DNA of 64,000 nt from a virus. Taxonomy: Duplodnaviria > Caudoviricetes. The stretch is from IMG/VR virus record IMGVR_UViG_3300028591_000070, positions 128,001 through 192,000 of that record. The stretch is one strand, 5' to 3'. The notes below the pieces were generated by a model that saw only the letters and a program-made list of their open reading frames with translations, ran no database searches and was not told the origin of the DNA. Below, in pieces: positions 11,038 through 55,789 of the stretch (position 1 is the first letter of the stretch; every line of letters begins with the position of its first letter). The position numbers and the translations under genes are program-made.

Positions 11038-14000
11038 ATGAAAAAGTTTCAACCTAATAGTGATCTATACAACAATTTTTACGATGGCTACACTTCTTCA
11101 GATGAATTTATAGCCAAAAAAAGAATCCATACAACTAATGAAATTCCTCCTCTTTCAATTTATAAGAATCTCCATTCTATGCTTCAGAGAGATTTCTGGA
11201 AGAACTTAGTTGGCGACACAGAAATTATTTATGATGAGTATTATAATTTAGACACAGATGGAAAAGAAACTTTTGATAGAAATGGTGACATAAAGGAAAT
11301 GTCAGTTGCCAAATATACAAATGGCATTCGTTCCTTAAACTATGGCCCAATCCCTAGATTAGTTTGGAATAAAAACTGGAAAAAAGATTATGAGAATTAT
11401 TTACAACAAGTAGAAGATGGTGAAGCATTTGATGAAGGTAAAACAGCAAATGACTTTAAATATATTGTAGATAATTCTGAAACAAAATATAATCGTTTTG
11501 AAGTAACTGGTGTTTTTGAGCCTCAGAAAGATCTTATGATGCATGAGGCTTATCGCTATTTAAGTTGTATTTATCCAGACCATCCAGATTATTTGAACAT
11601 TCTTACAAAGAATGAATTTGATGATAAAATTGATGACTCAGCTTGTTTAATTGATTATAAGATTGATATTCCTTTTATGGATTGGCTTCCAAAATATTTT
11701 GAATATATTGAAGGAATAAATACACAAATTGCTCAAGAAGATGAAGCTGCAAAATTAAAGATTCGTAACCTTAAAAATTATGCAATGAATAGAAAATTCT
11801 TTGGTGCTAAAGAAGGTTATAAAATGTTTGCGGCATCTGCTTTCCAACATGCATCAATTTACTCAGCTTCTCAATATATTCCATTAGAGGGTGGAAATGT
11901 TTCAAGTTTTGGCACTCCAAAGAATGTTGATATTACTTGGTTTAAGGAGTTTTTTGACCAGCCTGAAGAATTTACAAATAGTGACATAGATAAAGGACAC
12001 TACTTATATAAGAAACTTTTCAGAAATATAGATTGGCAGAACTCTTCTTATGATTTCATAAACAGATATAAAGAGCCAACTCCTTTTTATGGAACAGCAT
12101 ATCCAACTCCAAATTCTCGTTTTGTTTTATATGAATATCCAAATGAAAGAATTATCGATACTTTGGATAAACAGGAAGGAAGATCAACTGATGATCTCTA
12201 TGGAACAATAAGAGCTGATTTCAAAGAAGGTCAGAAAATTAAGGTAAGTGGTCAAAAACAAAATTGGGAAGAAGGCTCGTATAAAGAAGGACATATCTCA
12301 TATATTACAAGCGAAACTTATTATAAAGTTAGAGCTATATTAGGATATAACAAGAGTGGTGATTACATGCCTTCTAAATCTGAATTAGAAGAGCATCATA
12401 TTGATAATGCTATTACAGTTGTAAATGTTGATACTCCATTGCAGCCACTTTACAAAAATTTTAGTGTATATCCTTCAAATGGAAAAATACTTCAGCTTAT
12501 TTCAGACCATGACAATAATCCTGAATTAATAGAACATGATAAGGATTTACCTATTGAAGAAAAATGGGCAATTCATAAGAGTGATGCAGATGTAATGCTT
12601 CCATATTTTCAATCACTTGAAATGGAACAGCCTTTCTATTGTTCAACTATTGTTCTTGAGAATATTTATGGTGATATTAAAGGTGAATTATCAAGATTTA
12701 ATGAGGCTCCTAAAGTAAAAACTGCAAAAATCACATTAGACCCACATCAAGATGGATGCATATTTATTGCCCCACAACAGCAGATTTCTGAATTTGAAGA
12801 GGCCTTAAATATCACATTAAATATAGATAGTTGGTTTGATGAGAATGTAGCAAAACCTGCCTCAAAAATAATTTATGGAACTACAAATCTTTCTGATAAA
12901 GCTTTCTTGAAAGAAGGTGATTATATTGTTTCAGAAGATAAAAAATATATCTCATCTGTTTTAGGATTGTCTAGCGCATTCTTACAATTCAGCTTAACTG
13001 GAAAAGGAACAGACTATGAACTTATAAATAAAAAAGTAGAAGCAATGAATAAAGAAACTACTGCTAGACATGGTGTTGTTTTTGCTTTAAGTGGAAACAA
13101 CCCAGAAGCAGCAGGAAAAAGAGTAATTGTTTTTGGTAAGCCTACTTTTGAAGATGTTACTTCTATGGACAATGATCCAAGAAAATTCTCTTCTAAGGGT
13201 GTTTATTTTGATGTTAAAGCAATTCCTACAACTAAAGACCATGCTCAATTAAGATTTATTTACGGTAGTAGATTTGCTTCTATTGCAGCTCAAAAATATC
13301 AAGATTTAAGACAGTTGTATAAAGATGATTATCTTTCTATTGCTGATGAATATGCTAAAAATCTTTTAGATAATCTTCTTTTGATTGATGAAAGTTTTAA
13401 GGCTTTAGATGAGAGAGTTGAAAAAACTAGAGAGTCTATTAAGAATGAGTCTATTTATTACAATGACTACTCAGCTAAAAAATATGATTATTATATGGAC
13501 ACAACTATTTCTGCTATGCTTCTTCGTAAAGTTTTACAAAAACAAGCAGAAAAAACTTATAAGCCTTATGATGATGAATTAAATGGTAAAATTGATGACC
13601 TTGTAAAAACTTATAGAAATACTTGTAACTATGAACTTACTATGGCTGGTGATACAACTTATGCAAATCTTGAAACAGCTAGAAATATTTATACAGATAG
13701 TTTAGTTGACGCTTGGAATGGTTTCAATAAAGTATTTAATGAGGAATACAATAAGTTTTATAAGGCTATTAGCAATTTAGTAGAAGATGGCACAGATTTA
13801 GAAGCTCCAAAAATTAAAAAGAATCTTGAAAAGAATTATAAGATTGTAAATGAAAAATTAAATATTCTTTATAATGCAATTTTAGATTATACACAAGTTT
13901 ATAATGACTCAAATTGGACAGATATTTCTCAGCCATTAGAAGATCTTCTCGGATGGTTTGATAGATTTAAGGACTCTAGAACTCTTATCAGAGAAGCTTA

Positions 14001-17000
14001 TACTAAACTCTTCAAGGATGGTAAAGATGCAGAACAAATCTATCTTAATAGCTGCATACAGTCTCTTAAAGAGTTTAATGATGTATATTATCCTCAATAT
14101 GTTGAATATACTAAGGCTCTTAATAATTCTGAAAATGATGTTCATGAGGAATTAGAGTCAGTTGAGCATCTTTTCTCAGCAATTTCATATTACTATGATG
14201 AAATTGAAAATACTCTTAATCAAAGAAAAACAGTTACTAAAGATGTAACAGACTCTTTCAAAGATGCATTCTATGACTATACAAACTTTATAATTTCTTC
14301 TTGCGGTAAAGGTTCTTATGACGAAAGAGGAATGGCCGCCTTCAAGAAAGATTATAATAAAAAATTACAAGAATTTATTACACTCGAAATTAAAGCTAAA
14401 GAGGTTGTTAAAAAATATGTAGATGAATACATGACTTGGTTTAGTGAAGAGATTGCAATTTATTTTGATGATGAGCAGTTTTATAGCGATGTTATAGACA
14501 TTAAGAGCTCAGACCCAGAAATTAGAAATCTTTCACTAGATATTCTTGGATGTGATACAGTTTTATTTACTGAAATGCTTCCAAATAAAGCATTCTTATT
14601 AGCTCCTCTTCCTAAAGACCTTTTAATGAGAAAGGAATTAGAAGGAGATTTTAGTTACTCATTACTTACAGACCAAGATTATTTCCAAGATATTGTTTCA
14701 TTCAAGAAAAATGAATTTGATGATTTATTGGAATTAGAAGCAGAAAGTATTTTTGGTAGAAGTGGATTGCTCACAAACTGTAAATCAGTTTCAATGGATG
14801 CTTGGAGTTTTGGTTCAATAAACACAGCAACATTAGCAGAGACTCACTATGATGAGGATATATTTGATTATGTTACTGAAGATGTTGCCTTAAAAACAGA
14901 AGCAGATAAAAACTTCTTAGGTGATTACTATCAGTCTAATAAACCTTGGATAAATGATTATTATATTGATGACCCACAGGCAGCAGAATTAGAAGTTAAA
15001 CAATATAAATATTTTGACTTAAATCAGGATATTTATACTTTAATGAATGATACTGATATGACTCATAAGTTTGCATATTGTGACCCTAATATGCTTGAAA
15101 TGTTCTTAACTGATGAGGATAAGAATAATATTCGTGGTGAGGTATTAAATTTTAATAAAGTAAAAATTAATTGTCATACTGTACAAGATTCAAATGTTGT
15201 TACCTTAGAGGAAAGAGCATCAATTAGAAAATTAGATTATATCACAACAGGATGCCAAGTTATTGGTAAAACTGTAGATGATGATACATATGTAGAAGCA
15301 ATTGACTTAGAAGATCATTCTATAACATTAAATAAGCCAATGCAGATTACAGGTGAATTTGTATTTACATTTTTATGTAAAATTCAATATGAGCCTGATG
15401 ACGTTTCAGAAGACTTCTATAATTATCGTATTGCAGCTTCTAAAAATAAAGAAGTTTCAAATAACTCAATTTTTGAACATGGTGTTATTGATACCTTAAA
15501 TTATGGCGAAATCTCAGATTATATGCTTAGCTCATATATTGATTTTGCTGTATTTAGAGAAGCTCTTACTGATAACTTACAAGAGCAGCCATACTATAAA
15601 GAAAACTTCAATTTGCTTGTAAGAAATTTCTATAATAGATATTTGGGAACAGCTCGTGAGAATGATGTATTTGTTAAGCCATCTATGATTGAGAATGAAG
15701 ATGATATTTTCTTTGAATTAAATGCTTATAACCTTTTAGGTGAAGATTATATCATGAGGCAAGAAATATTAGATTATTTCTATCAGTACTTAGATGAAAT
15801 GACAAAAGCTTCAGATGACATTCATCTAGGTGTTGCTGTAAATGGATATACTCTAAATGATGGAAAAGTTTTCCATGGTGATAGCGCATTCTCAGATAAA
15901 AACATTCATGCTAAGTTTATAACTACTGATGACTGGAAGGATTATGAGCCATTCTATATTAAGATTGGTTGTGGTTGTATTCCAGGTATTTTTGATGAAA
16001 AAGAAATTGTAGACCACGATGAGAATGATGAACTTGTAGGAAGATCACTTTATAATGAACATGATGACCCTTATGGTTCTGCTCTTTATAATGGTTCACA
16101 AGTAGAAGTACAAGATAATACTCAAAGAAAACATTATTATGATATTGGTGACCCTGTATTTAAGGCTCGTTTAGGTGAATATGAAATTCAGAAAAATATC
16201 ATGTTTAATGATTTCTCATCTGATAGAGTATTTAATACTATCCAATTCTCAGTTATGAAAAGAATCATCGACTCATTTGTTGATGATAACACAATTACTA
16301 TTGCGAACTCAACAGTTTCAAACTGGAATGGATTACAAACATGGCCTAAAAACTGTTATACAATAGATGATCTTTATATTATGGGTGAAAATGGGGAAGC
16401 AGCTGAACTTAAAGATATAAACTTCTTAGGTGAATGGTCTCCTAAAATTGAAAATGATGAGATTGTTTTCCCAGAAAAGCCATTATATGACAATGTATTA
16501 AATTATTATGTAATTACAAATAATTATAGCTTCATTGTAGATGAGAAAGAGGTTAATTATAAGCCTGGACAGATTATTATCTGGGAAAATGACAAATGGA
16601 TTGTTAAAACATTCTATGCTGCTGGATTTATTGGTGATTCATATTCTGCAGCAAAATATATCACAGGTAAATATGAAGATGAGGCTATCACAACAGGTTC
16701 AAATCTTATCATTACTGAAACAACAGATTTTAGAGCAGTTATTCTTTATAAGGTTTTAAATTCTATTGGATGCTATACTAATATTGCCACTGCAGCAAAT
16801 TATGGTTACTCTAAATTATTAGAGCTTTATCAAAATGCTTTAGCATTCTTCAAAGAAGAAAAAACAATAGATGAAGTAAATGAATCAGTATATCCTATTG
16901 AATTAGACCCAACCTGTAAAAATACTTTTGATGAGAATACTTGTTATTGGTTTGAATACATTGGATATGATGCCGATTTTGCGGATGCTTTGGCAAATAG

Positions 17001-20000
17001 AAACTTTAAGCCAGGACAGTTTATTGCAGCTATTTATAATATTGACCATTTCGAGATTGTATTATGCGATGTTTCTCAATTACTATTCCATTTTGATAAC
17101 TCAAGAAAATATCTCTCTGAAAGAGAGTATAGAACATTCTTTGGATTAAACTCTAAAGCAAATGGAGCTTCATTAGAAGGTGAAGATTATATTGATAGAT
17201 ATCCATTCTTAATCAATGAAAAAATTGAGTCTATTTCAAATACTATTAAGTTGAGAGATTATGAAGAGCTCGTTCCAGGTTCATATTCTTCTATGAATAG
17301 AGTTTGTATTCCATTCACAGCAGAAGGATTTAGATATTTAGAAGATGGTTCAATCTCAAAAGAAAAAGAAAAGATTTTCCTTACAGAAGACTATATTTTC
17401 TCAGATGATGAAAATAAAGTATTATTTACATATAACATGATTGATGGTAAACCTGTAAAGTTTGCTATTTATCAGGAACAGAACAAATACTTTAAAAATA
17501 TTGTAAATAATGTAGTTGGATATTCAAAAGAAGAGGTTCTTACAAAAGATGGCCTTATTCAGAATGGTATCTTTACACCTGTTTCTGGATTTGACTTCAG
17601 TGGCTCAAGTTTAAGTTTGAATGATAGAATTTTAAGTCTTAAGCCAATTGATATTCGTTCAGCTTATGGACTTTATTTAGAGCCTCGTTTATTCAGTAAA
17701 TATACAACTATTTCTGGTACACTTAAAGGTATTATTGCAGATTCAGATATCGAAGAAAGACTTTATGGAAAAGTTTTGAAATGGAATGTTTCTCATGAAT
17801 TTGGAACTGGTACAAAAGAATATCTTAATAGAGTTTCATTTGCATCAGTTTTGGATAATTTCCGTCCAAATAATAAACAAGATGAAACAGTTTATCAAGA
17901 AAATAGTTTGACATTTGATAAAGATTCATTTGAAGACAAAATTATATCTGCTCCTAAGATTACAAAAGTGAATATCTTGGATAAGATTTCTACAGAAAAT
18001 GGAGTAACTTATTATAAGAATAATCTTATCGTTGAAGGTACAATTGATGAAAAAGACCCAACAGTTATCAACTTTGGTAGTACAAAATCTATTGATGCCT
18101 TAAATAATGTACAGGTTGGTGATAAGATTCTTGAAATTGCTTCTCTTACAAATGGTTCAAATACATTTAATCAGATTGATGCCGACCTTACAGGTATTAG
18201 ATTTATTGATTATAGAAATAATAAACTCTTGATTTGTGCTGACTCAGGTATGAAAGTAAGAGAAATGAGTGAGTTTACACTCGAGAATGTTAAGAGAATT
18301 AATGGTTCTACAAGACAGGACTACATCTTAGATGATGAAGTATTAACTGGTTCTGTAAGTCCTTCAATGCTTATCTGGGATAATGACCAAGAAAATTGGA
18401 TTTTAGCCCTTAAAGAAGCAAATGCTGAAATAGGTCTTGGAATGTATAATATTTCTTTCCAAGATGATAATAGAATCGTTCTTATTAAGATTGATGAAGA
18501 TCTTGAAAAAGATAATGACTTCAATAAGTTCCAATTAGTTGACCCTTACATTACTGAAAATCTTGATAAACTTAATAATTCAAATGATAAATTAATTTCT
18601 CATAAATATAGCGAAGGTAGAATGCTTGCAAGAGATATGGCCATTCGTGAAATTGATACAACAATCAATAAAAAGCCATCTAGAGCAACTGTTACTGTTG
18701 AATATAAAGAAACAAATGGCAAGATTCAGCCTAAATCTCCTATTATAGAATATGATGCATCACCTAGAAATTACATTGAATTAGATTGTACTATAAGCAA
18801 TACAAAAGAAGAAACAACTCTTAAATTAAAGAAAGATAAAGCTTATTGGTTGTTTGACAATAGAATTGGTAAGTGGATTTTCTATCAGACAAATAAGGGT
18901 TCTGAGATTCATATTGGTGACCAAGGAAAAGATTCTCTTAATTTAAGACTTTATTATGTTGGTTACAATACAGCTAAAAATATTGGATTAGACCAGACAT
19001 TTGAAACAGATGCTTGGGGATTTGCTGATGCTACAGAGGTAAATGATAATACTTTAGCTCAAGGTGAGTTCTTATGGAAATTACCTCGCCCAATGTATGA
19101 CAATGAAATTATTGCCGTACAAGTTGAAACACAAGCTTCTTATGAAAAGAGCTCAAATGTTGATGATAAAGATAATAAGTATTCAGAAATTGATGTTTAC
19201 GCCGAGATAGCGGGCGCAACAATTTCAGACGTAGCTATTACAACTAAAGACATTCTCACAATTGGTACAGAAGCTTATGATAATCATGAAGCTTTAAGAA
19301 ATAAAACAGACTTCGATAGATTACCATATGTAACAGGACCTTATATTCCTTATGAGGATAAGTCTAAAGTTATTAGAGGTTGCTCAAACTCAGATGGTTA
19401 TGAAGCTGTTTTGGTAGGTACAAATATCTTTATTAAGTCTCCTACAAAACTTTGGACTTCTGACAATAATAAACATTATACTCCAACTATGGAAACAGAA
19501 GAGTTCTTCTGGAAACGTGCAAAACTTCCAAGATTTAGAGATATTTCTCATGGTGATATTTCTAAAATGACTATTGAAGATGCATTTACAAAAGTTGCAA
19601 TTATGCGTCTTATGGTTTTGGAAGACCTTAAAACAAACTTCCCAGAGTCTGCATTCTATGCTTGGCTTAAAAATAATGAAGTTGTTCATTATGAGAATAT
19701 TGATGATATTCCAACAAAAATCACAATGAATGATGTATCTTATACTATTACTGCTAATGGTACAAGACCTACATATTTCACAACACTTAAAGATGGCGAG
19801 CTTGTTCCAGAAAGTGTAGTATATGGAAAAGCATTGCATTTTGAAAATTATATCGCAGCAGAGGATGTTGACCTTTCATTAGGATATGCTTCAAACTCAT
19901 ACTTAAAAGAGCAGATGTATCTTTCTTATTTGAGAGATTTCTATGAAATTATTTTAGGTTGCAATAATATTACAAATATGTTTGAAGAAGGAATAAAAGA

Positions 20001-23000
20001 TATTAAGATGTCTAATACTTGTCTTATTATTACTTCTTATAACAATATCATCATGAGTTTGCCATTCTCTAAAATGACAAGTAGAGATGATATTGAAAAC
20101 ATGAATAACTGGAATATGCTTAGTCTTAATACTGACTACGAAATTCCATGTTGTGATAATCATTCATATCAGAATGGAAATTATATCTATAAAGATAGTC
20201 AGAATGGTATTGTAACTTATAACTTTGGACCAAAATTATCATCATTCTTTGCTTATGACCTTACTTGCTCATATGTTAAGGATGATATTCAGGTTTATGG
20301 TGGTACATTAAATCTTGATAATCAGGCTGTTTCAGATTATTTGAGCTTCCTTAAAAAGTTTGATGGTGTAGATTATGACTATTCTTGGATGGATAAATCT
20401 AATGTAAATGCATTTAAGAATAAACATTTATTCATTGCTTATTCAAGTGATAATGGTCGTACATTCACTACAGTTGACCTTACAGAAGCTGGTATTCAGA
20501 TTCCAACAATGGGTTCAAATGTAAATGCAATTTATAGAATAGATAATACTATTAGAATTCTTTATAACAAGAGTTCTGATAAGATTTATAATTATGATAT
20601 TATAATTAAGGATGACTCTCTTGAAGAAAGTTTGATTGAAAAAGAATATACTGAATCTGACATTAAGTATAAGCTAATGAATAAAAATTTCTATATTGGT
20701 GGTGGCTATGAATGTTTAATCAACTCACCAGTAGAAAAGAATAGCTTTAATTCAAGTGTAGATAGTTTTATTATCTCAATGCCAGGTGCTTTCTCAGGTG
20801 GTACTATTTCTATAAAATCTGCTACTTCTATCACTTATAATCCAACAAATGTATATGATACAGATGGTGGAAACTTAAATGTTAGAGTTCTTTTAGCTAT
20901 TCAGACTTCTAAACAGATTTATGATCAGTTCAAATACCTCGACTATAAAGAAGATTACTTCAATATGCAAGGTGATTTAAGAGTAAGCGAATCTGAAGAG
21001 GTATTGAATTCATCAACTGCTGATAGAGCATTCTCATTAAATGAAACTTTACCACTTGCTCAAGAGTCAATTTATAGTATTCCTTCATTAGCTGTTGATA
21101 CTGGAGATAAAGGTACTCATAACATTTATAAATATAATGTTTCTCTTAAGAATGGCTCAAATGAAAAGGTTTATAACCCAATTCCTATGACAAACTTTGA
21201 AGGTAATGACATTTATCTTTGTGGTATGGTTTCTCAAGAAGAAGGAAAGAAATTCTTAATTTATAGAAACAGAACTATTGGAAGTTGCATGACATTTAAG
21301 GATATTCTTAAATCATATAATAGTTCACCAGATATTATTGACAATATCCAGAGAATGTATGATATAAATGATGACTTTGAGTTTACTGTAAATGATGAGT
21401 TCTTAACAAATATTATCAATAAATATGCAATTGATAAAAATCTCATCTTAAAAGAAATTCATTTTGAGAATGAAAATCCTCATATGATAAATACTACAAG
21501 TGAAAATACAGATGAAGATATTATCCAGATTTTGAATAATAAATACTTCTTAAAGTGGCCTACAATCGATGGTGCTTTATGCGAAAAGCTCTGTGGTGAT
21601 TTAGGACTTGAATTTGATGAGTATGATGGTTCTAATACTGATGATGGCCTTAAAGAGTTTTTAGAGAAGTTGCAGCTTCTTGAGAAAGATTTAGGCAACC
21701 TAACAGATGAAATTATTAGATCATACTTTAAACCAATTAAGGTTTACTATAATGAAGATGACTACTTCTATGGCGTTTATGAGATTAGTTCATCTACAAT
21801 TTTAATGACAGAAAGATCAATCAAAGAAGTTATTTCAATGACTTATGAGTTTGGTTCTACTTTCAATTATTTGGATAATTCAATTCTTACAAGTACTACA
21901 GATTTGGATGAAAATAATTTGAGTATGTATACTGCTGTATTAAATACTCAATATGATGAAAACTCTTTAATAAACGCAATTGCTATTGATCCGGTTGGTT
22001 ATGGAGCTTCAATAAGCAATAAGAAATGGGATAATAAGCTTCCTCAAGATATTGACCCAGCTGCTTGGGTTGAAAATACAATGTTGTTCAACTCAAATGG
22101 AGAGCCAATCTTCTTATGCGACACAAATGGAAATAATGTCACAATGAGAAAAGGTTTATTCTATGGTGAAAAAGGAAATGTTTATACAGTTTCTCATGAT
22201 AATCTTTATGCTGAAGATTCAGTTATTGACATTTTTGATGGCAACTTGGTTGATAATAAATCAACATTCCATTTCTATAGTTTACCTGAGTCTGAAATAA
22301 AGATTTGGACACCTTTTGAAAAAGTTGACCTTAAAGATACAGTAATTACTCCATTTAGAGTTTATAGAGGTGGTATTGCAATTTCTAAAGAAGAATTTGA
22401 TGCTCACTACACTTTAACTTATAGTTCTCTTTATAAGAATGACCTTACACCTTATGTTGGTTTAGCTATCACTTATGATGGTGAAAAACTTGCATTTAAG
22501 GGAAGTTATAATGGTGATGCTCTTGTTGAAAATGATGTTCTTAATATAACTATAACAGATAATAGATCTGGAGCTTCAGCTTCTATAACTCTTGAAGTAG
22601 AAAATAACAGCTTCAAAGTTGTAAATGTTCCAAATACATATGAGGCTTATACAGAAGATGATTCACAACAAATAACTTATGTTATCAATAGAGAACTTTC
22701 TAAGATTTCTATTCCAGATAATAATATCAGTGGAGCAATTTCTAGAGAAAATGGAAAAACAAATTTAGCAATTACAATTGCTAGATGGCCTGAAAAACCT
22801 TCAATTATCATTTATGATAATGATGGTAATTCAGCAAATCTTAAATTGGATGTTGTTAAATTAAATCCAAAGCTTTATACAGATAGAGATTGGATTAGTG
22901 ACAATTTAGATGTAGATGGAATAAATTGTAAAGTATACTCAGAAGATGTAGATATTACAGATAGATATGTTATCACAAAAACTAATAAACAAATTAAAGC

Positions 23001-24333
23001 TGTTTGTAAGTATTCTGCACTCTCTATTCTTACAAAAGAAATTAAACAAGTTGAGTCTAATATTAAAGTAGGTGATATTGATTACAACAATAAGTTTGTT
23101 TATTCTTATGGTGAAGAAAATACATTTGTTGTAAATCGTCAGGAAGACTTCTTAATTAGAGGTTTATTTGGACAAGTAATTCTTCTTGCTCCAGCATTTA
23201 AAAACTTTAAAGACTTAATTACCTCTCTTGGAAGAATGATTGATACTGATGTTGAAGAAATTTATAATGTTGAGACAGCAGATGAAAAAATCTCAATTGT
23301 AAGTATAGATACAACAAAAGTAAGTATTGACCACTTATTAGATACTGAAGCACCTTATTTAAGGATAAAGCTTATGCCAGTTTCTTCTATTATATTGCCA
23401 TCAGACCTTATGAATAATAAGGATTACTATACTGAGATTAGTATTGATGATATAGACTTCTATGGTTATGATAGAGTTTGGATTAATGAGAATGTATTTA
23501 TGGCTCCTCCATTAAAAGTAGAAAATCAATACTTTAATACAGAGAGTGTTGCACAATATACAGTTGAGTCTTGGAAAAACAAAGATGGATATTCAGTATA
23601 TCTTTCTGATGAAAATGGTAAGTATGTTAAAGGATTTATCAATAATCATAAATTGAATTATAAGGTTATTGGTGATGAATTTGGAAATTGCTCACAAGAA
23701 GTTTATCAGAGTGTAAATCCTAGATTAAATCCAACTGAGCTTATTTATAAGACTGCTTATGATTATTACTATAACACATATTATAGTAGTGTTAGAAGAA
23801 GCAATCCATTCTTTAGATTCTTGAAGATTAACCAAAATATTATTGGTGAGAATATCATAGATGAGATTGGACTTTATCAGCAGCTTAAAGAGAATAATGT
23901 AATAGTTCTCAAGAAGGATAATGACTTTAATGTAATTAACAAGATCACATTAGACCTCGACCTAAATCAGACTTATAGTCTTGATGATATTATTGATGAA
24001 AAGAAAGGAGAACTAAATTATATTATAACATGCACTCCTTCTGATGAAGAATATAGCTATTTAGCTGGTATTAAATATAAGAATTACATGTATGATAGTG
24101 ACATTGTTTCTGATAAAAAATATTGTAAAGTAGACAGTAATTTAATGGCTAAGTTTGCAATACTTTCAAAAGAAGATGTAACTAATACTGAGTATAAGCC
24201 TATAGTCAATATCACAGAAATGGGTATCTTCAGTAAGGAAGGATATTTGTTAGCTTATATGCACCATCCTATCGTGCAATATAATACAAAAACAAATCAC
24301 ATCTCATATAACTTAATTATAGAGAATGCATAG
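11038..24333 (+). CDS. Giant (4431 aa) virion structural protein, probably baseplate wedge/tail-fibre attachment
   Basis: C-terminal 'ITEMGIFSKEGYLLAYMHHPIVQ' resembles tail-collar/baseplate ends; preceded by ACTAATT motif; acidic, Asn/Tyr-rich. Confidence 0.6.
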   Translation: MKKFQPNSDLYNNFYDGYTSSDEFIAKKRIHTTNEIPPLSIYKNLHSMLQRDFWKNLVGDTEIIYDEYYNLDTDGKETFDRNGDIKEMSVAKYTNGIRSLNYGPIPRLVWNKNWKKDYENYLQQVEDGEAFDEGKTANDFKYIVDNSETKYNRFEVTGVFEPQKDLMMHEAYRYLSCIYPDHPDYLNILTKNEFDDKIDDSACLIDYKIDIPFMDWLPKYFEYIEGINTQIAQEDEAAKLKIRNLKNYAMNRKFFGAKEGYKMFAASAFQHASIYSASQYIPLEGGNVSSFGTPKNVDITWFKEFFDQPEEFTNSDIDKGHYLYKKLFRNIDWQNSSYDFINRYKEPTPFYGTAYPTPNSRFVLYEYPNERIIDTLDKQEGRSTDDLYGTIRADFKEGQKIKVSGQKQNWEEGSYKEGHISYITSETYYKVRAILGYNKSGDYMPSKSELEEHHIDNAITVVNVDTPLQPLYKNFSVYPSNGKILQLISDHDNNPELIEHDKDLPIEEKWAIHKSDADVMLPYFQSLEMEQPFYCSTIVLENIYGDIKGELSRFNEAPKVKTAKITLDPHQDGCIFIAPQQQISEFEEALNITLNIDSWFDENVAKPASKIIYGTTNLSDKAFLKEGDYIVSEDKKYISSVLGLSSAFLQFSLTGKGTDYELINKKVEAMNKETTARHGVVFALSGNNPEAAGKRVIVFGKPTFEDVTSMDNDPRKFSSKGVYFDVKAIPTTKDHAQLRFIYGSRFASIAAQKYQDLRQLYKDDYLSIADEYAKNLLDNLLLIDESFKALDERVEKTRESIKNESIYYNDYSAKKYDYYMDTTISAMLLRKVLQKQAEKTYKPYDDELNGKIDDLVKTYRNTCNYELTMAGDTTYANLETARNIYTDSLVDAWNGFNKVFNEEYNKFYKAISNLVEDGTDLEAPKIKKNLEKNYKIVNEKLNILYNAILDYTQVYNDSNWTDISQPLEDLLGWFDRFKDSRTLIREAYTKLFKDGKDAEQIYLNSCIQSLKEFNDVYYPQYVEYTKALNNSENDVHEELESVEHLFSAISYYYDEIENTLNQRKTVTKDVTDSFKDAFYDYTNFIISSCGKGSYDERGMAAFKKDYNKKLQEFITLEIKAKEVVKKYVDEYMTWFSEEIAIYFDDEQFYSDVIDIKSSDPEIRNLSLDILGCDTVLFTEMLPNKAFLLAPLPKDLLMRKELEGDFSYSLLTDQDYFQDIVSFKKNEFDDLLELEAESIFGRSGLLTNCKSVSMDAWSFGSINTATLAETHYDEDIFDYVTEDVALKTEADKNFLGDYYQSNKPWINDYYIDDPQAAELEVKQYKYFDLNQDIYTLMNDTDMTHKFAYCDPNMLEMFLTDEDKNNIRGEVLNFNKVKINCHTVQDSNVVTLEERASIRKLDYITTGCQVIGKTVDDDTYVEAIDLEDHSITLNKPMQITGEFVFTFLCKIQYEPDDVSEDFYNYRIAASKNKEVSNNSIFEHGVIDTLNYGEISDYMLSSYIDFAVFREALTDNLQEQPYYKENFNLLVRNFYNRYLGTARENDVFVKPSMIENEDDIFFELNAYNLLGEDYIMRQEILDYFYQYLDEMTKASDDIHLGVAVNGYTLNDGKVFHGDSAFSDKNIHAKFITTDDWKDYEPFYIKIGCGCIPGIFDEKEIVDHDENDELVGRSLYNEHDDPYGSALYNGSQVEVQDNTQRKHYYDIGDPVFKARLGEYEIQKNIMFNDFSSDRVFNTIQFSVMKRIIDSFVDDNTITIANSTVSNWNGLQTWPKNCYTIDDLYIMGENGEAAELKDINFLGEWSPKIENDEIVFPEKPLYDNVLNYYVITNNYSFIVDEKEVNYKPGQIIIWENDKWIVKTFYAAGFIGDSYSAAKYITGKYEDEAITTGSNLIITETTDFRAVILYKVLNSIGCYTNIATAANYGYSKLLELYQNALAFFKEEKTIDEVNESVYPIELDPTCKNTFDENTCYWFEYIGYDADFADALANRNFKPGQFIAAIYNIDHFEIVLCDVSQLLFHFDNSRKYLSEREYRTFFGLNSKANGASLEGEDYIDRYPFLINEKIESISNTIKLRDYEELVPGSYSSMNRVCIPFTAEGFRYLEDGSISKEKEKIFLTEDYIFSDDENKVLFTYNMIDGKPVKFAIYQEQNKYFKNIVNNVVGYSKEEVLTKDGLIQNGIFTPVSGFDFSGSSLSLNDRILSLKPIDIRSAYGLYLEPRLFSKYTTISGTLKGIIADSDIEERLYGKVLKWNVSHEFGTGTKEYLNRVSFASVLDNFRPNNKQDETVYQENSLTFDKDSFEDKIISAPKITKVNILDKISTENGVTYYKNNLIVEGTIDEKDPTVINFGSTKSIDALNNVQVGDKILEIASLTNGSNTFNQIDADLTGIRFIDYRNNKLLICADSGMKVREMSEFTLENVKRINGSTRQDYILDDEVLTGSVSPSMLIWDNDQENWILALKEANAEIGLGMYNISFQDDNRIVLIKIDEDLEKDNDFNKFQLVDPYITENLDKLNNSNDKLISHKYSEGRMLARDMAIREIDTTINKKPSRATVTVEYKETNGKIQPKSPIIEYDASPRNYIELDCTISNTKEETTLKLKKDKAYWLFDNRIGKWIFYQTNKGSEIHIGDQGKDSLNLRLYYVGYNTAKNIGLDQTFETDAWGFADATEVNDNTLAQGEFLWKLPRPMYDNEIIAVQVETQASYEKSSNVDDKDNKYSEIDVYAEIAGATISDVAITTKDILTIGTEAYDNHEALRNKTDFDRLPYVTGPYIPYEDKSKVIRGCSNSDGYEAVLVGTNIFIKSPTKLWTSDNNKHYTPTMETEEFFWKRAKLPRFRDISHGDISKMTIEDAFTKVAIMRLMVLEDLKTNFPESAFYAWLKNNEVVHYENIDDIPTKITMNDVSYTITANGTRPTYFTTLKDGELVPESVVYGKALHFENYIAAEDVDLSLGYASNSYLKEQMYLSYLRDFYEIILGCNNITNMFEEGIKDIKMSNTCLIITSYNNIIMSLPFSKMTSRDDIENMNNWNMLSLNTDYEIPCCDNHSYQNGNYIYKDSQNGIVTYNFGPKLSSFFAYDLTCSYVKDDIQVYGGTLNLDNQAVSDYLSFLKKFDGVDYDYSWMDKSNVNAFKNKHLFIAYSSDNGRTFTTVDLTEAGIQIPTMGSNVNAIYRIDNTIRILYNKSSDKIYNYDIIIKDDSLEESLIEKEYTESDIKYKLMNKNFYIGGGYECLINSPVEKNSFNSSVDSFIISMPGAFSGGTISIKSATSITYNPTNVYDTDGGNLNVRVLLAIQTSKQIYDQFKYLDYKEDYFNMQGDLRVSESEEVLNSSTADRAFSLNETLPLAQESIYSIPSLAVDTGDKGTHNIYKYNVSLKNGSNEKVYNPIPMTNFEGNDIYLCGMVSQEEGKKFLIYRNRTIGSCMTFKDILKSYNSSPDIIDNIQRMYDINDDFEFTVNDEFLTNIINKYAIDKNLILKEIHFENENPHMINTTSENTDEDIIQILNNKYFLKWPTIDGALCEKLCGDLGLEFDEYDGSNTDDGLKEFLEKLQLLEKDLGNLTDEIIRSYFKPIKVYYNEDDYFYGVYEISSSTILMTERSIKEVISMTYEFGSTFNYLDNSILTSTTDLDENNLSMYTAVLNTQYDENSLINAIAIDPVGYGASISNKKWDNKLPQDIDPAAWVENTMLFNSNGEPIFLCDTNGNNVTMRKGLFYGEKGNVYTVSHDNLYAEDSVIDIFDGNLVDNKSTFHFYSLPESEIKIWTPFEKVDLKDTVITPFRVYRGGIAISKEEFDAHYTLTYSSLYKNDLTPYVGLAITYDGEKLAFKGSYNGDALVENDVLNITITDNRSGASASITLEVENNSFKVVNVPNTYEAYTEDDSQQITYVINRELSKISIPDNNISGAISRENGKTNLAITIARWPEKPSIIIYDNDGNSANLKLDVVKLNPKLYTDRDWISDNLDVDGINCKVYSEDVDITDRYVITKTNKQIKAVCKYSALSILTKEIKQVESNIKVGDIDYNNKFVYSYGEENTFVVNRQEDFLIRGLFGQVILLAPAFKNFKDLITSLGRMIDTDVEEIYNVETADEKISIVSIDTTKVSIDHLLDTEAPYLRIKLMPVSSIILPSDLMNNKDYYTEISIDDIDFYGYDRVWINENVFMAPPLKVENQYFNTESVAQYTVESWKNKDGYSVYLSDENGKYVKGFINNHKLNYKVIGDEFGNCSQEVYQSVNPRLNPTELIYKTAYDYYYNTYYSSVRRSNPFFRFLKINQNIIGENIIDEIGLYQQLKENNVIVLKKDNDFNVINKITLDLDLNQTYSLDDIIDEKKGELNYIITCTPSDEEYSYLAGIKYKNYMYDSDIVSDKKYCKVDSNLMAKFAILSKEDVTNTEYKPIVNITEMGIFSKEGYLLAYMHHPIVQYNTKTNHISYNLIIENA

Positions 24334-35882: not shown

Positions 35883-35931
35883 AAAATAAAAAACCCTCTC
35901 GATTTTTTCGAGAGGGCTCTATAAAAATTAA
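35883..35931 (-). terminator. Attenuator terminator A
   Basis: RNA cccucucga/ucgagaggg hairpin plus U-tract directly before the first tRNA; 5' arm complementary to the end of leader A. Confidence 0.85.
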
Positions 35932-35960
35932 ACTTATTATGAATCTATCACATATCAAAT

Positions 35961-36068
35961 CTAATTTCTATAAAGTCCTCCACCGAATAGGAGTATAAAC
36001 ATTTGCTGTAAAAACAAATGTAACTGGCTGAGAAAACTAAACTGATGTAAACTCATTGTATTGTTCAT
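35961..36068 (-). CDS. Leader peptide A: MNNTMSLHQFSFLSQLHLFLQQMFILLFGGGLYRN
   Basis: SD aggag; residues 5-28 use only M/S/L/H/Q/F/I, the tRNA set of operon A. Confidence 0.85.
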   Translation of the reverse strand: MNNTMSLHQFSFLSQLHLFLQQMFILLFGGGLYRN

Positions 36069-41023: not shown

Positions 41024-41027
41024 ATAT

Positions 41028-41068
41028 AAAATAAAAAAGGTCTTTCATTTCTGAAAGACCTTAAGTAA
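41028..41068 (-). terminator. Attenuator terminator B
   Basis: RNA aaggucuuuca/ugaaagaccuu plus U-tract; 5' arm complementary to the end of leader B. Confidence 0.85.
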
Positions 41069-41090
41069 ATCTATAAAAAAACTTATAACC

Positions 41091-41228
41091 TTACTTAAAG
41101 TCTTTCTCCTTTTTACCGGCAATAACCCATTTAGAAGAACAAGGCACAATACGAGGGGCAACTGCTTTCGCAGACGCAATAGAAGAGGCACAAATAATTG
41201 AACGACCGATAATTCCATTCTCTACCAT
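41091..41228 (-). CDS. Leader peptide B: MVENGIIGRSIICASSIASAKAVAPRIVPCSSKWVIAGKKEKDFK
   Basis: SD aaggag; residues 5-40 use only G/I/R/S/C/A/K/V/P/W, the tRNA set of operon B. Confidence 0.9.
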   Translation of the reverse strand: MVENGIIGRSIICASSIASAKAVAPRIVPCSSKWVIAGKKEKDFK

Positions 41229-53450: not shown

Positions 53451-53527
53451 TCTCGGGTGATGGAATCGAACCATCCCGATATCGAGCTTATGAGGCTCGT
53501 AAGCCACAACCAGTGCTTCAACCCGAA
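53451..53527 (-). tRNA. tRNA-Met/Ile2(CAT) (operon C)
   Basis: cgagc-CTCATAA-gctcg. Confidence 0.75.
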
Positions 53528-53528
53528 T

Positions 53529-53655
53529 TGCCAAATGCTGGACTTGAACCAACCTACCATATCACTTCCGTAACTAATCAAACCTTAATTAAGGTTTTAA
53601 GGTTGTGCTCCACAACCAATCTTAGGTGATATCCTCTGCCTTTCGAGACTTGGCA
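53529..53655 (-). ncRNA. tRNA-shell RNA with two hairpins replacing the anticodon loop
   Basis: gccaag/tttggc acceptor, D-like arm, atatcac/gtgatat stem, T arm. Confidence 0.6.
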
Positions 53656-53663
53656 TAAAAAAC

Positions 53664-53789
53664 AGTTTAAGAATACTTCAAACGGTTTGCTGCTGAGCAG
53701 CGAGATTGGGACCTTTCCCATCATCCAATGAATGGCGGATAATATAAGAATCGAACTTATGAAGTAACCGTCCAAAACTGCATTAAACT
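53664..53789 (-). ncRNA. YrlA-like Y RNA, permuted (T arm, closed acceptor, D-like hairpin)
   Basis: AATGCAG..CGGTTACTTC; ATAAGTTCGATTCTTAT. Confidence 0.75.
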
Positions 53790-53793
53790 ATAG

Positions 53794-53866
53794 AGTACCA
53801 GAAGGGACTCGAACCCTCTACATCCGACTTGGAAGGACGGCGCTCTACCAGATGAGCTACTGATAC
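53794..53866 (-). tRNA. tRNA-Gly(TCC) (operon C)
   Basis: Loop CTTCCAA, U73. Confidence 0.88.
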
Positions 53867-53873
53867 ATAAAAA

Positions 53874-54011
53874 ACATTTTAAGTAAAACGAAAAGAGTGT
53901 TGAATCAGCTTTCAGTGGGGATCGAACCCACAAATATTCATTAACAGTGAATTGTTTAACCATTAAACTACAAAAGTATTGAAGTAACTCTTTTCAACTG
54001 CATTAAAATGT
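53874..54011 (-). ncRNA. Y-RNA module enclosing a complete non-permuted tRNA-Asn(GTT)-like cloverleaf
   Basis: AATGCAG..GAGTTACTTC; attca-CTGTTAA-tgaat; D and T arms. Confidence 0.75.
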
Positions 54012-54014
54012 CTC

Positions 54015-54087
54015 TAGTCCATGAGGGAGTCGAACCCACGTCTTTTGGATGAAAACCAAATGGCGACTGCCGTTAGCCGAATGGACC
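54015..54087 (-). tRNA. tRNA-Glu(TTC) (operon C)
   Basis: tttgg-TTTTCAT-ccaaa. Confidence 0.85.
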
Positions 54088-54094
54088 ATAAAAA

Positions 54095-54235
54095 ACAACT
54101 AAGAAAAAATTGAACAGTACGTTTTTACCTGCTCTACCAACTGAGCTACATCTCCACGAATTGGAGACGACTGGATTCGAACCAATGACACGGGGTTTTC
54201 AAGACCGAAGTAACTGTTACGTCTGCATTAGTTGT
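54095..54235 (-). ncRNA. YrlA-like Y RNA with permuted tRNA-Phe-derived domain
   Basis: AATGCAG..CAGTTACTTCG; TTGAAAA-ccccgtgtc; T arm; closed acceptor gtctcca/tggagat; TAGCTCAGTTGGTAGAGC. Confidence 0.82.
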
Positions 54236-54314
54236 ATTATTATGTGGGGCATTACTTTTTAAGAACACCGTCGCATTCTTAATTGTCACCGTCGCAACAT
54301 AAAGTTTTGCCTCT

Positions 54315-54387
54315 TAGTTCTTGCGAGATTCGAACTCACTCCTCGTCCTTGAAAGGGACGCGACTCAACCAATTTGTCCTAAGAACC
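54315..54387 (-). tRNA. tRNA-Glu(TTC) (operon C)
   Basis: cgtcc-CTTTCAA-ggacg. Confidence 0.9.
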
Positions 54388-54478
54388 ATGGCGGCCAACG
54401 GTTTAATTTTAGGTGGAACCTCAGGTCTGTAAAAACCACCTTATTTTTAGGATTTAATCTTATAATCCGCAAAGAATA

Positions 54479-54549
54479 AGCTACGTGTAGGAGTCGAACC
54501 CACCTCTCTTGATTACAGGTCAAGACCTCAACCGATAAGACAACGTAGC
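54479..54549 (-). tRNA. tRNA-Thr(TGT) (operon C)
   Basis: cttga-CCTGTAA-tcaag. Confidence 0.8.
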
Positions 54550-54701
54550 ATATAAAAATTATAAAAGAAACCGCGAAAAACTTTTACTGAATGTTACACT
54601 TTGCCTACTTGCACAAGGCCACTCTCACACTCTTTCAGCTTACTGTCATAGACAGCTTACCTTTCAACCCATTACAAGTTCCTGGGCTCGATTTTTTATA
54701 G

Positions 54702-54776
54702 TTTCGGAAATAGGAGTCGAACCTACTATTTCTAGCTTATGAGGCTAGCGTGATAAATCCGTTTCACTCTTCCGGA
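54702..54776 (-). tRNA. tRNA-Met(CAT) (operon C)
   Basis: ctagc-CTCATAA-gctag. Confidence 0.82.
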
Positions 54777-54850
54777 CGGGATAGGCGGGACTCGAACCCG
54801 CGACCTTCGCGCTGACAACGCGTCGAGCTAACCAACTGCTCCACAACCCC
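54777..54850 (-). tRNA. tRNA-Asp(GTC) (operon C)
   Basis: Loop TTGTCAG, G73. Confidence 0.85.
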
Positions 54851-54991
54851 AAAAAATGTTTGATGTTTTAAGTGTTATCGTCTCACTAGGGATTAATCGT
54901 TTGTCCACTATCGTTATCATAGTGAGCACGAGGAATCCTCCACCATCAGCTCTTTAGAGAAGCTGAAAACTCCTGTTTACTTAAAAACATA

Positions 54992-55064
54992 CGGTTTGTG
55001 CGAGAATCGAACTCGCCATCCCCTGCGTGACAGGCAGGTGTGATAACCGATACACTAACAAACC
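54992..55064 (-). tRNA. tRNA-Asp(GTC) (operon C)
   Basis: cctgc-CTGTCAC-gcagg, G73. Confidence 0.9.
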
Positions 55065-55070
55065 ATAAAG

Positions 55071-55156
55071 TGCTCAGGGGGAGATTCGAACTCCCTGCGT
55101 ATCTTACGTGTCGGTTTTACAGACCGATGCTACTCCACCATCGTAGCCGCCTAAGC
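55071..55156 (-). tRNA. tRNA-Tyr(GTA) (operon C)
   Basis: tcggt-CTGTAAA-accga, long V arm. Confidence 0.9.
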
Positions 55157-55167
55157 ATAATTTTTAG

Positions 55168-55239
55168 CTGGCCGTGCGAGAGTTGAACTCGCCTAGGCGG
55201 ATTAACAGTCCGCTGCCTAAACCGATTGGCTAACGACCA
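55168..55239 (-). tRNA. tRNA-Asn(GTT), first gene of operon C
   Basis: gcgga-CTGTTAA-tccgc, G73. Confidence 0.9.
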
Positions 55240-55241
55240 AT

Positions 55242-55280
55242 AAAATAAAAAAGCTCTCCGAAAGGAGAGCTCATAAAACT
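55242..55280 (-). terminator. Attenuator terminator C
   Basis: RNA agcucucc-uuuc-ggagagcu plus U-tract; 5' arm complementary to the end of leader C. Confidence 0.85.
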
Positions 55281-55300
55281 TTTTTAATTATATAGTTTTA

Positions 55301-55402
55301 TTAACTCTCTCTTTTATACAAAGTAGTTTCTTCTGTCCCATAATCATATGTTACATTTTCATAAGAGAAATTATTATTGTAATCATAATTCATAGTAAAC
55401 AT
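55301..55402 (-). CDS. Leader peptide C: MFTMNYDYNNNFSYENVTYDYGTEETTLYKRES
   Basis: SD ggagg; 23 of the first 27 residues are M/N/Y/D/T/E/G, the tRNA set of operon C. Confidence 0.85.
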   Translation of the reverse strand: MFTMNYDYNNNFSYENVTYDYGTEETTLYKRES

Positions 55403-55789
55403 TGAAAATCTACTCCTCCAAATTAAGTTTTATATTTTAATTAGTACAATCATTAAAAATGATTGATGTATTTATATTAACATACTTTTGAAAAGTATGC
55501 TAAATATTTTCAAAGAAAAGCTCCAAAACTTTCAACTGATTAGAAAGAAAAAAGCTTATGCTAAAGCTCGATCCAACTTGCTACAATAGGGTAAGCTAAG
55601 CTGATTGTCCATACTTTAGTTTCATTAATCGGGGATGCCCGATTAAAGGCAACCTTCCACCACCAAGTTTCATTAATGTTTCTGAGAAGGAAGCTTCAAA
55701 AAACCTGGAAACAAATACCTTATTTAGAATATACTCAAATCTTATAAAAAGTTCAAGTAATTTCTAATGTTTTTCCATTTACAAATAAA

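Follow-up and report, generated by a model that had tools for sequence, protein, structure and literature searches.

Leader-peptide transcription attenuators control amino-acid operons, among them the multivalent ilvGMEDA and thr systems as well as trp, his, leu and pheA (for pheL, PMC3082878). In these systems, a short translated ORF rich in control codons is followed by a mutually exclusive antiterminator and intrinsic terminator, and stalling of the ribosome results in read-through. The pheM-pheST attenuator of E. coli extends leader-peptide attenuation to a translation-machinery operon, that of phenylalanyl-tRNA synthetase, which responds to charged tRNA. In the whiB7 uORF attenuator of mycobacteria, efficient uORF translation gives the terminator and stalled translation the antiterminator, and the composition of the uORF sets which shortages are sensed (bioRxiv 10.1101/2023.06.02.543512). 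The expression of the Salmonella RNA-repair operon rsr-yrlBA-rtcBA is tied to tRNA damage (PMC7790460). Phage tRNAs replace tRNAs lost to host defence, as for the T5 tRNAs against retron and PARIS (PMC11555353, PMC11464382), and they have been proposed to counter tRNA-cleaving nucleases (PMC10264068).

Here, we analysed a tRNA operon of a rumen jumbo phage that is preceded by a 33-codon leader ORF written almost only in the amino acids carried by the tRNAs behind it. The leader is wired to a predicted switchable transcription stop, so that the phage probably makes these tRNAs only when ribosomes run short of them. The window, i.e., the whole stretch of 64,000 nucleotides that was analysed, covers positions 128,001 to 192,000 of the virus record IMGVR_UViG_3300028591_000070, which has 385,934 bases and 31.7% GC and was found in sheep and cattle gut samples. 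The record has a T4-like capsid gene, and all 46 tRNA calls and the tmRNA of the genome lie on the minus strand of the window. Because no RNA polymerase beta subunit was found but a sigma70-like gene was, transcription by the host polymerase and coupled translation are plausible, although this remains an inference. The features are collected in Table 1.

Table 1. Positions of the leader, its predicted regulatory elements, the sister units and neighbouring features; positions refer to the window unless another record is named.
Feature	Record	Position	Strand	Remarks
Promoter-like motif 1, ATGTTAATAT	window	55474..55483	minus	extended -10-like
Promoter-like motif 2, TGTACTAATTA	window	55438..55448	minus	
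Shine-Dalgarno sequence GGAGGAG	window	55413..55419	minus	10 nt before the ATG
Leader ORF C	window	55301..55402	minus	33 codons plus TAA; codons 2-27 sensing stretch, codons 28-33 and the stop on or next to the antiterminator
Antiterminator 5' strand	window	55294..55309	minus	contains the stop codon
Antiterminator 3' strand	window	55265..55280	minus	its last 8 nt are the 5' arm of the terminator
Intrinsic terminator	window	55241..55272	minus	hairpin 55272-55251 plus U tract; 9-bp stem, -14.4 kcal/mol
tRNA operon C	window	53451..55239	minus	Asn(GUU), Tyr(GUA), Asp(GUC) x2, Met(CAU), Thr(UGU), Glu(UUC) x2, Asn(GUU, inside a Y-like module), Gly(UCC), Met(CAU)
YrlA-like Y RNA with a permuted tRNA-Phe-like domain	window	54095..54235	minus	YrlA match 54194-54125
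tRNA-like element with a long insertion in the anticodon arm	window	53655-53525	minus	undetermined call nearby with relaxed ARAGORN
Sister unit B	window	41025..41228	minus	45-codon leader, antiterminator, terminator; heads Pro, Ser, Ala, Gly, Ile, Val, Cys, Lys, Trp, Arg tRNAs
Sister unit A	window	35883..36068	minus	35-codon leader, antiterminator, terminator; heads Phe, Leu, His, Cys, Gln, Ser tRNAs
RtcB ligase	window	28265-27033	minus	
Ro60/TROVE	window	46499-44814	minus	
tmRNA	window	56155-55787	minus	unusual basic, Arg-rich tag
CCA-adding/poly(A) polymerase family gene	genome	73130-73492		outside the window
Y-RNA-like modules (at least nine)	window	54226, 54001, 53781, 51053, 46792, 46687, 42400, 40505, 35381	minus	start GCAG..GTTACTTC
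Asn call inside a Y-RNA-like module	window	53977-53907	minus	
Cys call inside a Y-RNA-like module	window	35371-35286	minus	
tRNA-Leu(AAG) call	window	35480-35397	minus	A at the wobble position
tRNA-Asn(AUU) call	window	41720-41644	minus	A at the wobble position
tRNA-Gly(ACC) call	window	48224-48148	minus	A at the wobble position
Hairpin plus short U tract	window	24895-24860	minus	directly before the lone tRNA-Leu(UAA)
Long ORF-free stretches among the tRNA genes	window	42240-41340, 44600-44150	minus	
ORF of 4431 codons	window	11038-24333	plus	
37-codon ORF, then hairpin with T tract, before tRNA-Arg(UCU)	L005	9140-9330		four Arg codons in the first 15
37-codon ORF, then hairpin with T tract, before tRNA-Arg(UCU)	L018	1025-1215		four Arg codons in the first 15
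IS605/TnpB-type element	L037	10340-11551		directly behind the clade-2 terminator
tRNA-Trp(CCA) with long variable arm	L038	10295-10384		

The preliminary description had read the leader as an attenuator sensing Asn, Tyr, Asp, Thr, Glu, Met and Gly, based on the match of 23 of its first 27 codons to the tRNAs of operon C and on a 15/16 pairing between the stop-codon region (55309-55294) and 55280-55265. We confirmed the codon match and the pairing. The leader encodes MFTMNYDYNNNFSYENVTYDYGTEETTLYKRES, and a run of 11 tRNAs begins sixty-two bases after its stop, with both CAU tRNAs counted as Met without distinguishing Ile2 or initiator. The four exceptions among the first 27 codons are Phe, Phe, Ser and Val. 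At the anticodon level, 20 of 27 codons are read by standard pairing or wobble, and three further ACU codons need four-way wobble by tRNA-Thr(UGU). After the start codon, 22 of 26 codons match against a proteome background of 0.396 (P=3e-6); none of 13,519 stop-free dinucleotide shuffles reached 22 (maximum 20), and 26 of 77,520 possible sets of seven amino acids scored as well. In the whole genome, only one glycine/aspartate-rich stretch scored as high. The antiterminator helix contains one G.U pair and one A.G mismatch and hides 8 of the 9 bases of the terminator's 5' arm; its duplex (-17.0 kcal/mol) was matched by 2 of 5000 shuffles. The U tract ends just before tRNA-Asn, leaving no room for another promoter.

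Unit C is one of three parallel units. Both promoter-like motifs, a Shine-Dalgarno sequence, a short ORF and a terminator stand before two further tRNA runs, B (41228-41091) and A (36068-35961), and the tRNAs of the three units together cover all 20 amino acids. Genome-wide counts of the promoter-like motifs were at or below chance, and their promoter role is therefore inferred. Each leader matched its own operon and neither of the others, giving a diagonal 3x3 table of leaders by operons (P 3e-6, 8e-10 and 7e-8 without the last six codons; off-diagonal P>=0.8). Leaders A and B begin with C-type amino acids (Asn, Thr, Met, Glu) and leader C begins with Phe, which may reflect either A/U-rich starts for initiation or cross-talk between units. 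When we ranked 57 strong terminators of the genome by the best upstream duplex with their 5' arm, units A, B and C took the first three places (-20.6, -18.5 and -17.0 kcal/mol; median -7.2). The strong hairpin before the lone tRNA-Leu(UAA) ranked fifth (-13.4).

These results bear on the possibility that the leader is simply a small protein gene with a leaky constitutive terminator, its composition and pairing being by-products of AT richness or of a local duplication. In favour of this view, the genome is AT-rich, as are Asn and Tyr codons, the peptide is conserved and called as a gene in many assemblies, and an antiterminator strand must resemble the 3' arm of the terminator, which a duplication could give. 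However, the shuffles never reached the observed match, the helix runs 8 bp beyond the terminator arm, the other 54 terminators scored lower, and three unrelated peptides each match their own operon. We consider this explanation very unlikely.

To examine how the unit would switch, we modelled a co-transcriptional snapshot in which the 3' arm of the terminator is still inside the polymerase. A folding measure averaged over all terminator pairs had been uninformative. In the snapshot, the 5' arm is held in the antiterminator (P 0.81) with no ribosome or with the A site at codons 1-27, and is free from codon 29 on. This boundary depends on an assumed 12-nt footprint, but it falls where the matching codons end and explains why the last six codons do not match. 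Because the terminator wins at full equilibrium even with no ribosome (antiterminator share 0.12 for C), the control must be kinetic. Neither a protective 1:2 helix nor a pause hairpin was found, with only weak pairing in the coding part, so an untranslated leader would be expected to read through.

Our best explanation, held with high confidence, is a ribosome-mediated transcription attenuator that gates the tRNA operon by negative feedback. In this view, host RNA polymerase starts upstream of the leader and a ribosome translates it. If Asn, Tyr, Asp, Thr, Glu, Met and Gly codons are decoded fast, the ribosome passes codon 28 and covers the stop-codon strand, the terminator folds, and transcription ends just before tRNA-Asn. 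If any of these tRNAs is scarce, cut or uncharged, the ribosome lags in codons 2-27, the stop-codon strand pairs first with the 5' arm of the terminator, and the polymerase reads into the tRNA genes, whose products would speed up the leader and shut the operon again. Units A, B and C together would watch all 20 amino acids, and the natural trigger is most likely loss of functional tRNA during infection from any cause (host nucleases, bulk degradation or demand) rather than one nuclease. Our analysis establishes the sequence anatomy, the statistics and the conservation, whereas translation of the leader, its timing, the switching itself, its dependence on decoding speed and the trigger are inferred from sequence alone. 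If the polymerase of the host outruns ribosomes, the default would be read-through; a 60%-identical Ro60 in a Clostridia MAG was too weak a link to name that host. In four rumen metatranscriptomes, the region was present only as assembled contigs, one spanning the terminator and another covering 55238-55413 only, neither of which shows ends, strand or level.

Because any lag before codon 28, or the absence of a ribosome, gives the antiterminator in the snapshot, the switch could instead sense only general translation slowdown or uncoupling, for example after host take-over, and act as a timing device for tRNA genes in which codon identity matters little. The response of whiB7-type uORFs to general translation stress (bioRxiv 10.1101/2023.06.02.543512) is in line with this idea. 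It does not explain the diagonal codon match of the three leaders, nor the Trp covariation and the different matched sets in Caulobacter phage CcrColossus described below, and we regard it as improbable, although it can coexist with the main model.

We next compared loci of relatives, designated by L numbers. Clade 1 (Ro60 about 90% identical) keeps the leader, helix and terminator. The changes seen were in-frame AAT expansions, synonymous changes, TAA to TAG exchange that keeps pairing as G.U, altered tails after the sensing stretch, and variable terminator loops with a conserved G/C stem in close relatives. The frame and promoter-like motif 1 are kept in relatives, the Shine-Dalgarno sequence is kept in the clade-1 relatives shown, and motif 2 is similar in clade 2. 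A more distant variant shortens both antiterminator strands together and keeps a weaker helix (-12.8). Pair counting on the clade-1 alignment, in which three rows were misaligned, gave no two-sided compensatory substitutions. L005 and L018 carry a possible fourth leader in a relative (Table 1). No cultured relative carries the leader, and no hit was obtained in GTDB genomes.

The divergent clade 2 (Ro60 68-70% identical) has a 42-44-codon homologue, 36-39% identical, with a different terminator sequence, which was not found in IMG/VR, and the same wiring. Its operon holds Gly, Tyr, Glu, Thr, Met, Asp, Asn and, in several loci, Ala, and its leader has Ala codons, which leader C lacks. The Ala match is incomplete, as Ala codons are kept in several loci where no tRNA-Ala was found, and clade-2 leaders match less well overall (whole-leader P 3e-4 to 0.1 with incomplete tRNA calls). 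Twelve loci with a Trp codon in the leader (L038-L049) have tRNA-Trp(CCA) as second gene, whereas seven loci without the codon (L020, L026, L050, L051, L055-L057, some of them short) show none in the DNA available. This covariation represents one event on the tree and not twelve, and the tRNA in question has an unusual long variable arm, like a Leu/Ser/Tyr-type body. L037 has the codon, but an IS605-type element sits right behind its terminator; the Gly and Trp tRNA genes are not seen there, and the element would come under the control of the attenuator.

As an unrelated test, we examined the cultured phage CcrColossus. A 39-codon ORF before its Pro/Thr/Lys/Leu/His/Ala/Ser block and an ORF before its Tyr/Phe/Val/Ile/Gln/Asn/Arg block are each made largely of those amino acids, with terminator-like hairpins and competing helices (P=7e-7 and 0.01 over whole ORFs with incomplete tRNA sets). 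No matched leader was detected before the tRNA runs of T5 or of the more distant Ro60-bearing phage loci L012, L021 and L028, though the loci may be partial.

The interpretation given in the preliminary description is thus only partly supported: the attenuator reading is borne out by codon statistics, RNA anatomy, two sister units, relatives and an unrelated cultured phage, but two additions are not. The first linked the GUN-anticodon tRNAs (Asn, Tyr, Asp) to colicin E5-type nucleases. Asn, Tyr and Asp do make up 12 of codons 2-27 and are the first tRNAs behind the terminator, and E5 cuts tRNA-Tyr, His, Asn and Asp (PMC1635277). However, His lies in operon A, three of four substrates in a set of seven amino acids has P=0.10, and Glu, Thr, Met and Gly are not E5 substrates. 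Furthermore, the three units tile the whole code, CcrColossus puts Tyr+Asn, Asp and His in three separate blocks, and the phage's own Asn, Tyr and Asp anticodon loops keep U-G-U. E5-type nucleases are therefore one possible trigger, and a switch that evolved as a specific alarm for them appears unlikely.

The second addition was that operon C contains a Phe-derived Y RNA rather than a tRNA-Phe, which would account for the two Phe codons. The match to the Rfam YrlA model (33.9 bits, E=5.5e-5) was below the gathering score of 69, with the TROVE gene in the same window. Re-permuted, the Y-like RNA was closest to the phage's own tRNA-Phe, although ARAGORN reads its loop as Ser(UGA); it is one of at least nine modules with the same 5' motif and appears to be a passenger in the operon. 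As had been suggested beforehand, we looked for tRNA-Phe, -Val and -Ser behind this leader in relatives and found no tRNA-Phe or -Val and one weak Ser call in L008. Clade-2 leaders mostly keep two Phe, a Val and usually a Ser with no match to this Y RNA in their loci. The Y-like RNA does not explain the Phe codons, and the Phe, Ser and Val exceptions, which recur in both clades, stay unexplained.

The phage also carries RtcB, Ro60, Y-like RNAs, a CCA-adding-type enzyme and tmRNA, which fit a life under tRNA damage (compare PMC7790460) but do not name the agent. No PF09414-type RNA ligase or TGT was found in the genome. Some of the Y-RNA-like modules enclose tRNA-like domains, and the window holds tRNA calls with A at the wobble position, which is rare in bacteria. 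The long ORF-free stretches among the tRNA genes had no Rfam match apart from a tRNA call and are possible unknown non-coding RNAs.

A further reading, which we put forward only tentatively, is that the three leaders form a full-code surveillance system for host tRNA destruction. Each would read out the functional level of one part of the tRNA set, switch on only the replacement block when a host anticodon nuclease fires, and be rewritten by selection when a tRNA gene moves between blocks, as with the Trp codon in clade 2. That would be an inducible, self-limiting counter-defence built from RNA alone. Why phages carry tRNA genes is a long-open question, with codon compensation and replacement of tRNAs lost during infection as alternatives (PMC10264068). 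A switch that transcribes tRNA genes only when their codons are decoded slowly would say that these tRNAs are an on-demand repair of tRNA shortage. It would also make the question testable, as each leader fused to a reporter would be a sensor for loss of a defined tRNA set that can be used to find which host defences a phage meets. We found no paper on attenuation of phage tRNA genes or tRNA operons, in a literature collection lacking most subscription journals, and the phiCbK genome paper does not mention attenuation; such a switch would extend attenuation to a class of gene for which we found no published case. The analogous units in a cultured Caulobacter phage give a bench system.

Compared with described systems, phage tRNAs acting in counter-defence share the replacement of lost tRNAs, but PMC10264068 does not mention attenuation. 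In the Salmonella rsr-yrlBA-rtcBA operon, which has parts similar to those of the phage, the sensor is the RtcR protein binding tRNA fragments and not a leader ORF (PMC7790460). No Rfam leader family (Trp, His, Leu, Thr, Phe) was matched above its threshold; the best hits were PyrG_leader with 27 bits (cut-off 65) and Phe_leader with 19.9 bits (cut-off 55), and a T-box was ruled out by the absence of any hit. The whiB7 uORF shares the expected read-through upon loss of translation, but it controls a transcription factor and its composition is not matched to a set of downstream tRNA genes, while pheM-pheST senses a single amino acid and controls a synthetase. The leader has the sequence hallmarks of a leader-peptide attenuator, namely a short ORF with a ribosome-binding site, control codons related to the downstream genes, an intrinsic terminator before the first gene, and an overlapping antiterminator whose 5' strand a ribosome can cover. 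Compared with the multivalent attenuators of amino-acid operons, it lacks a detectable 1:2 protector or pause helix, which in trp/his-type attenuators gives super-attenuation without translation, and it samples seven amino acids, is phage-borne with three units tiling the code, and precedes tRNA genes, so that the product is the sensed molecule itself.
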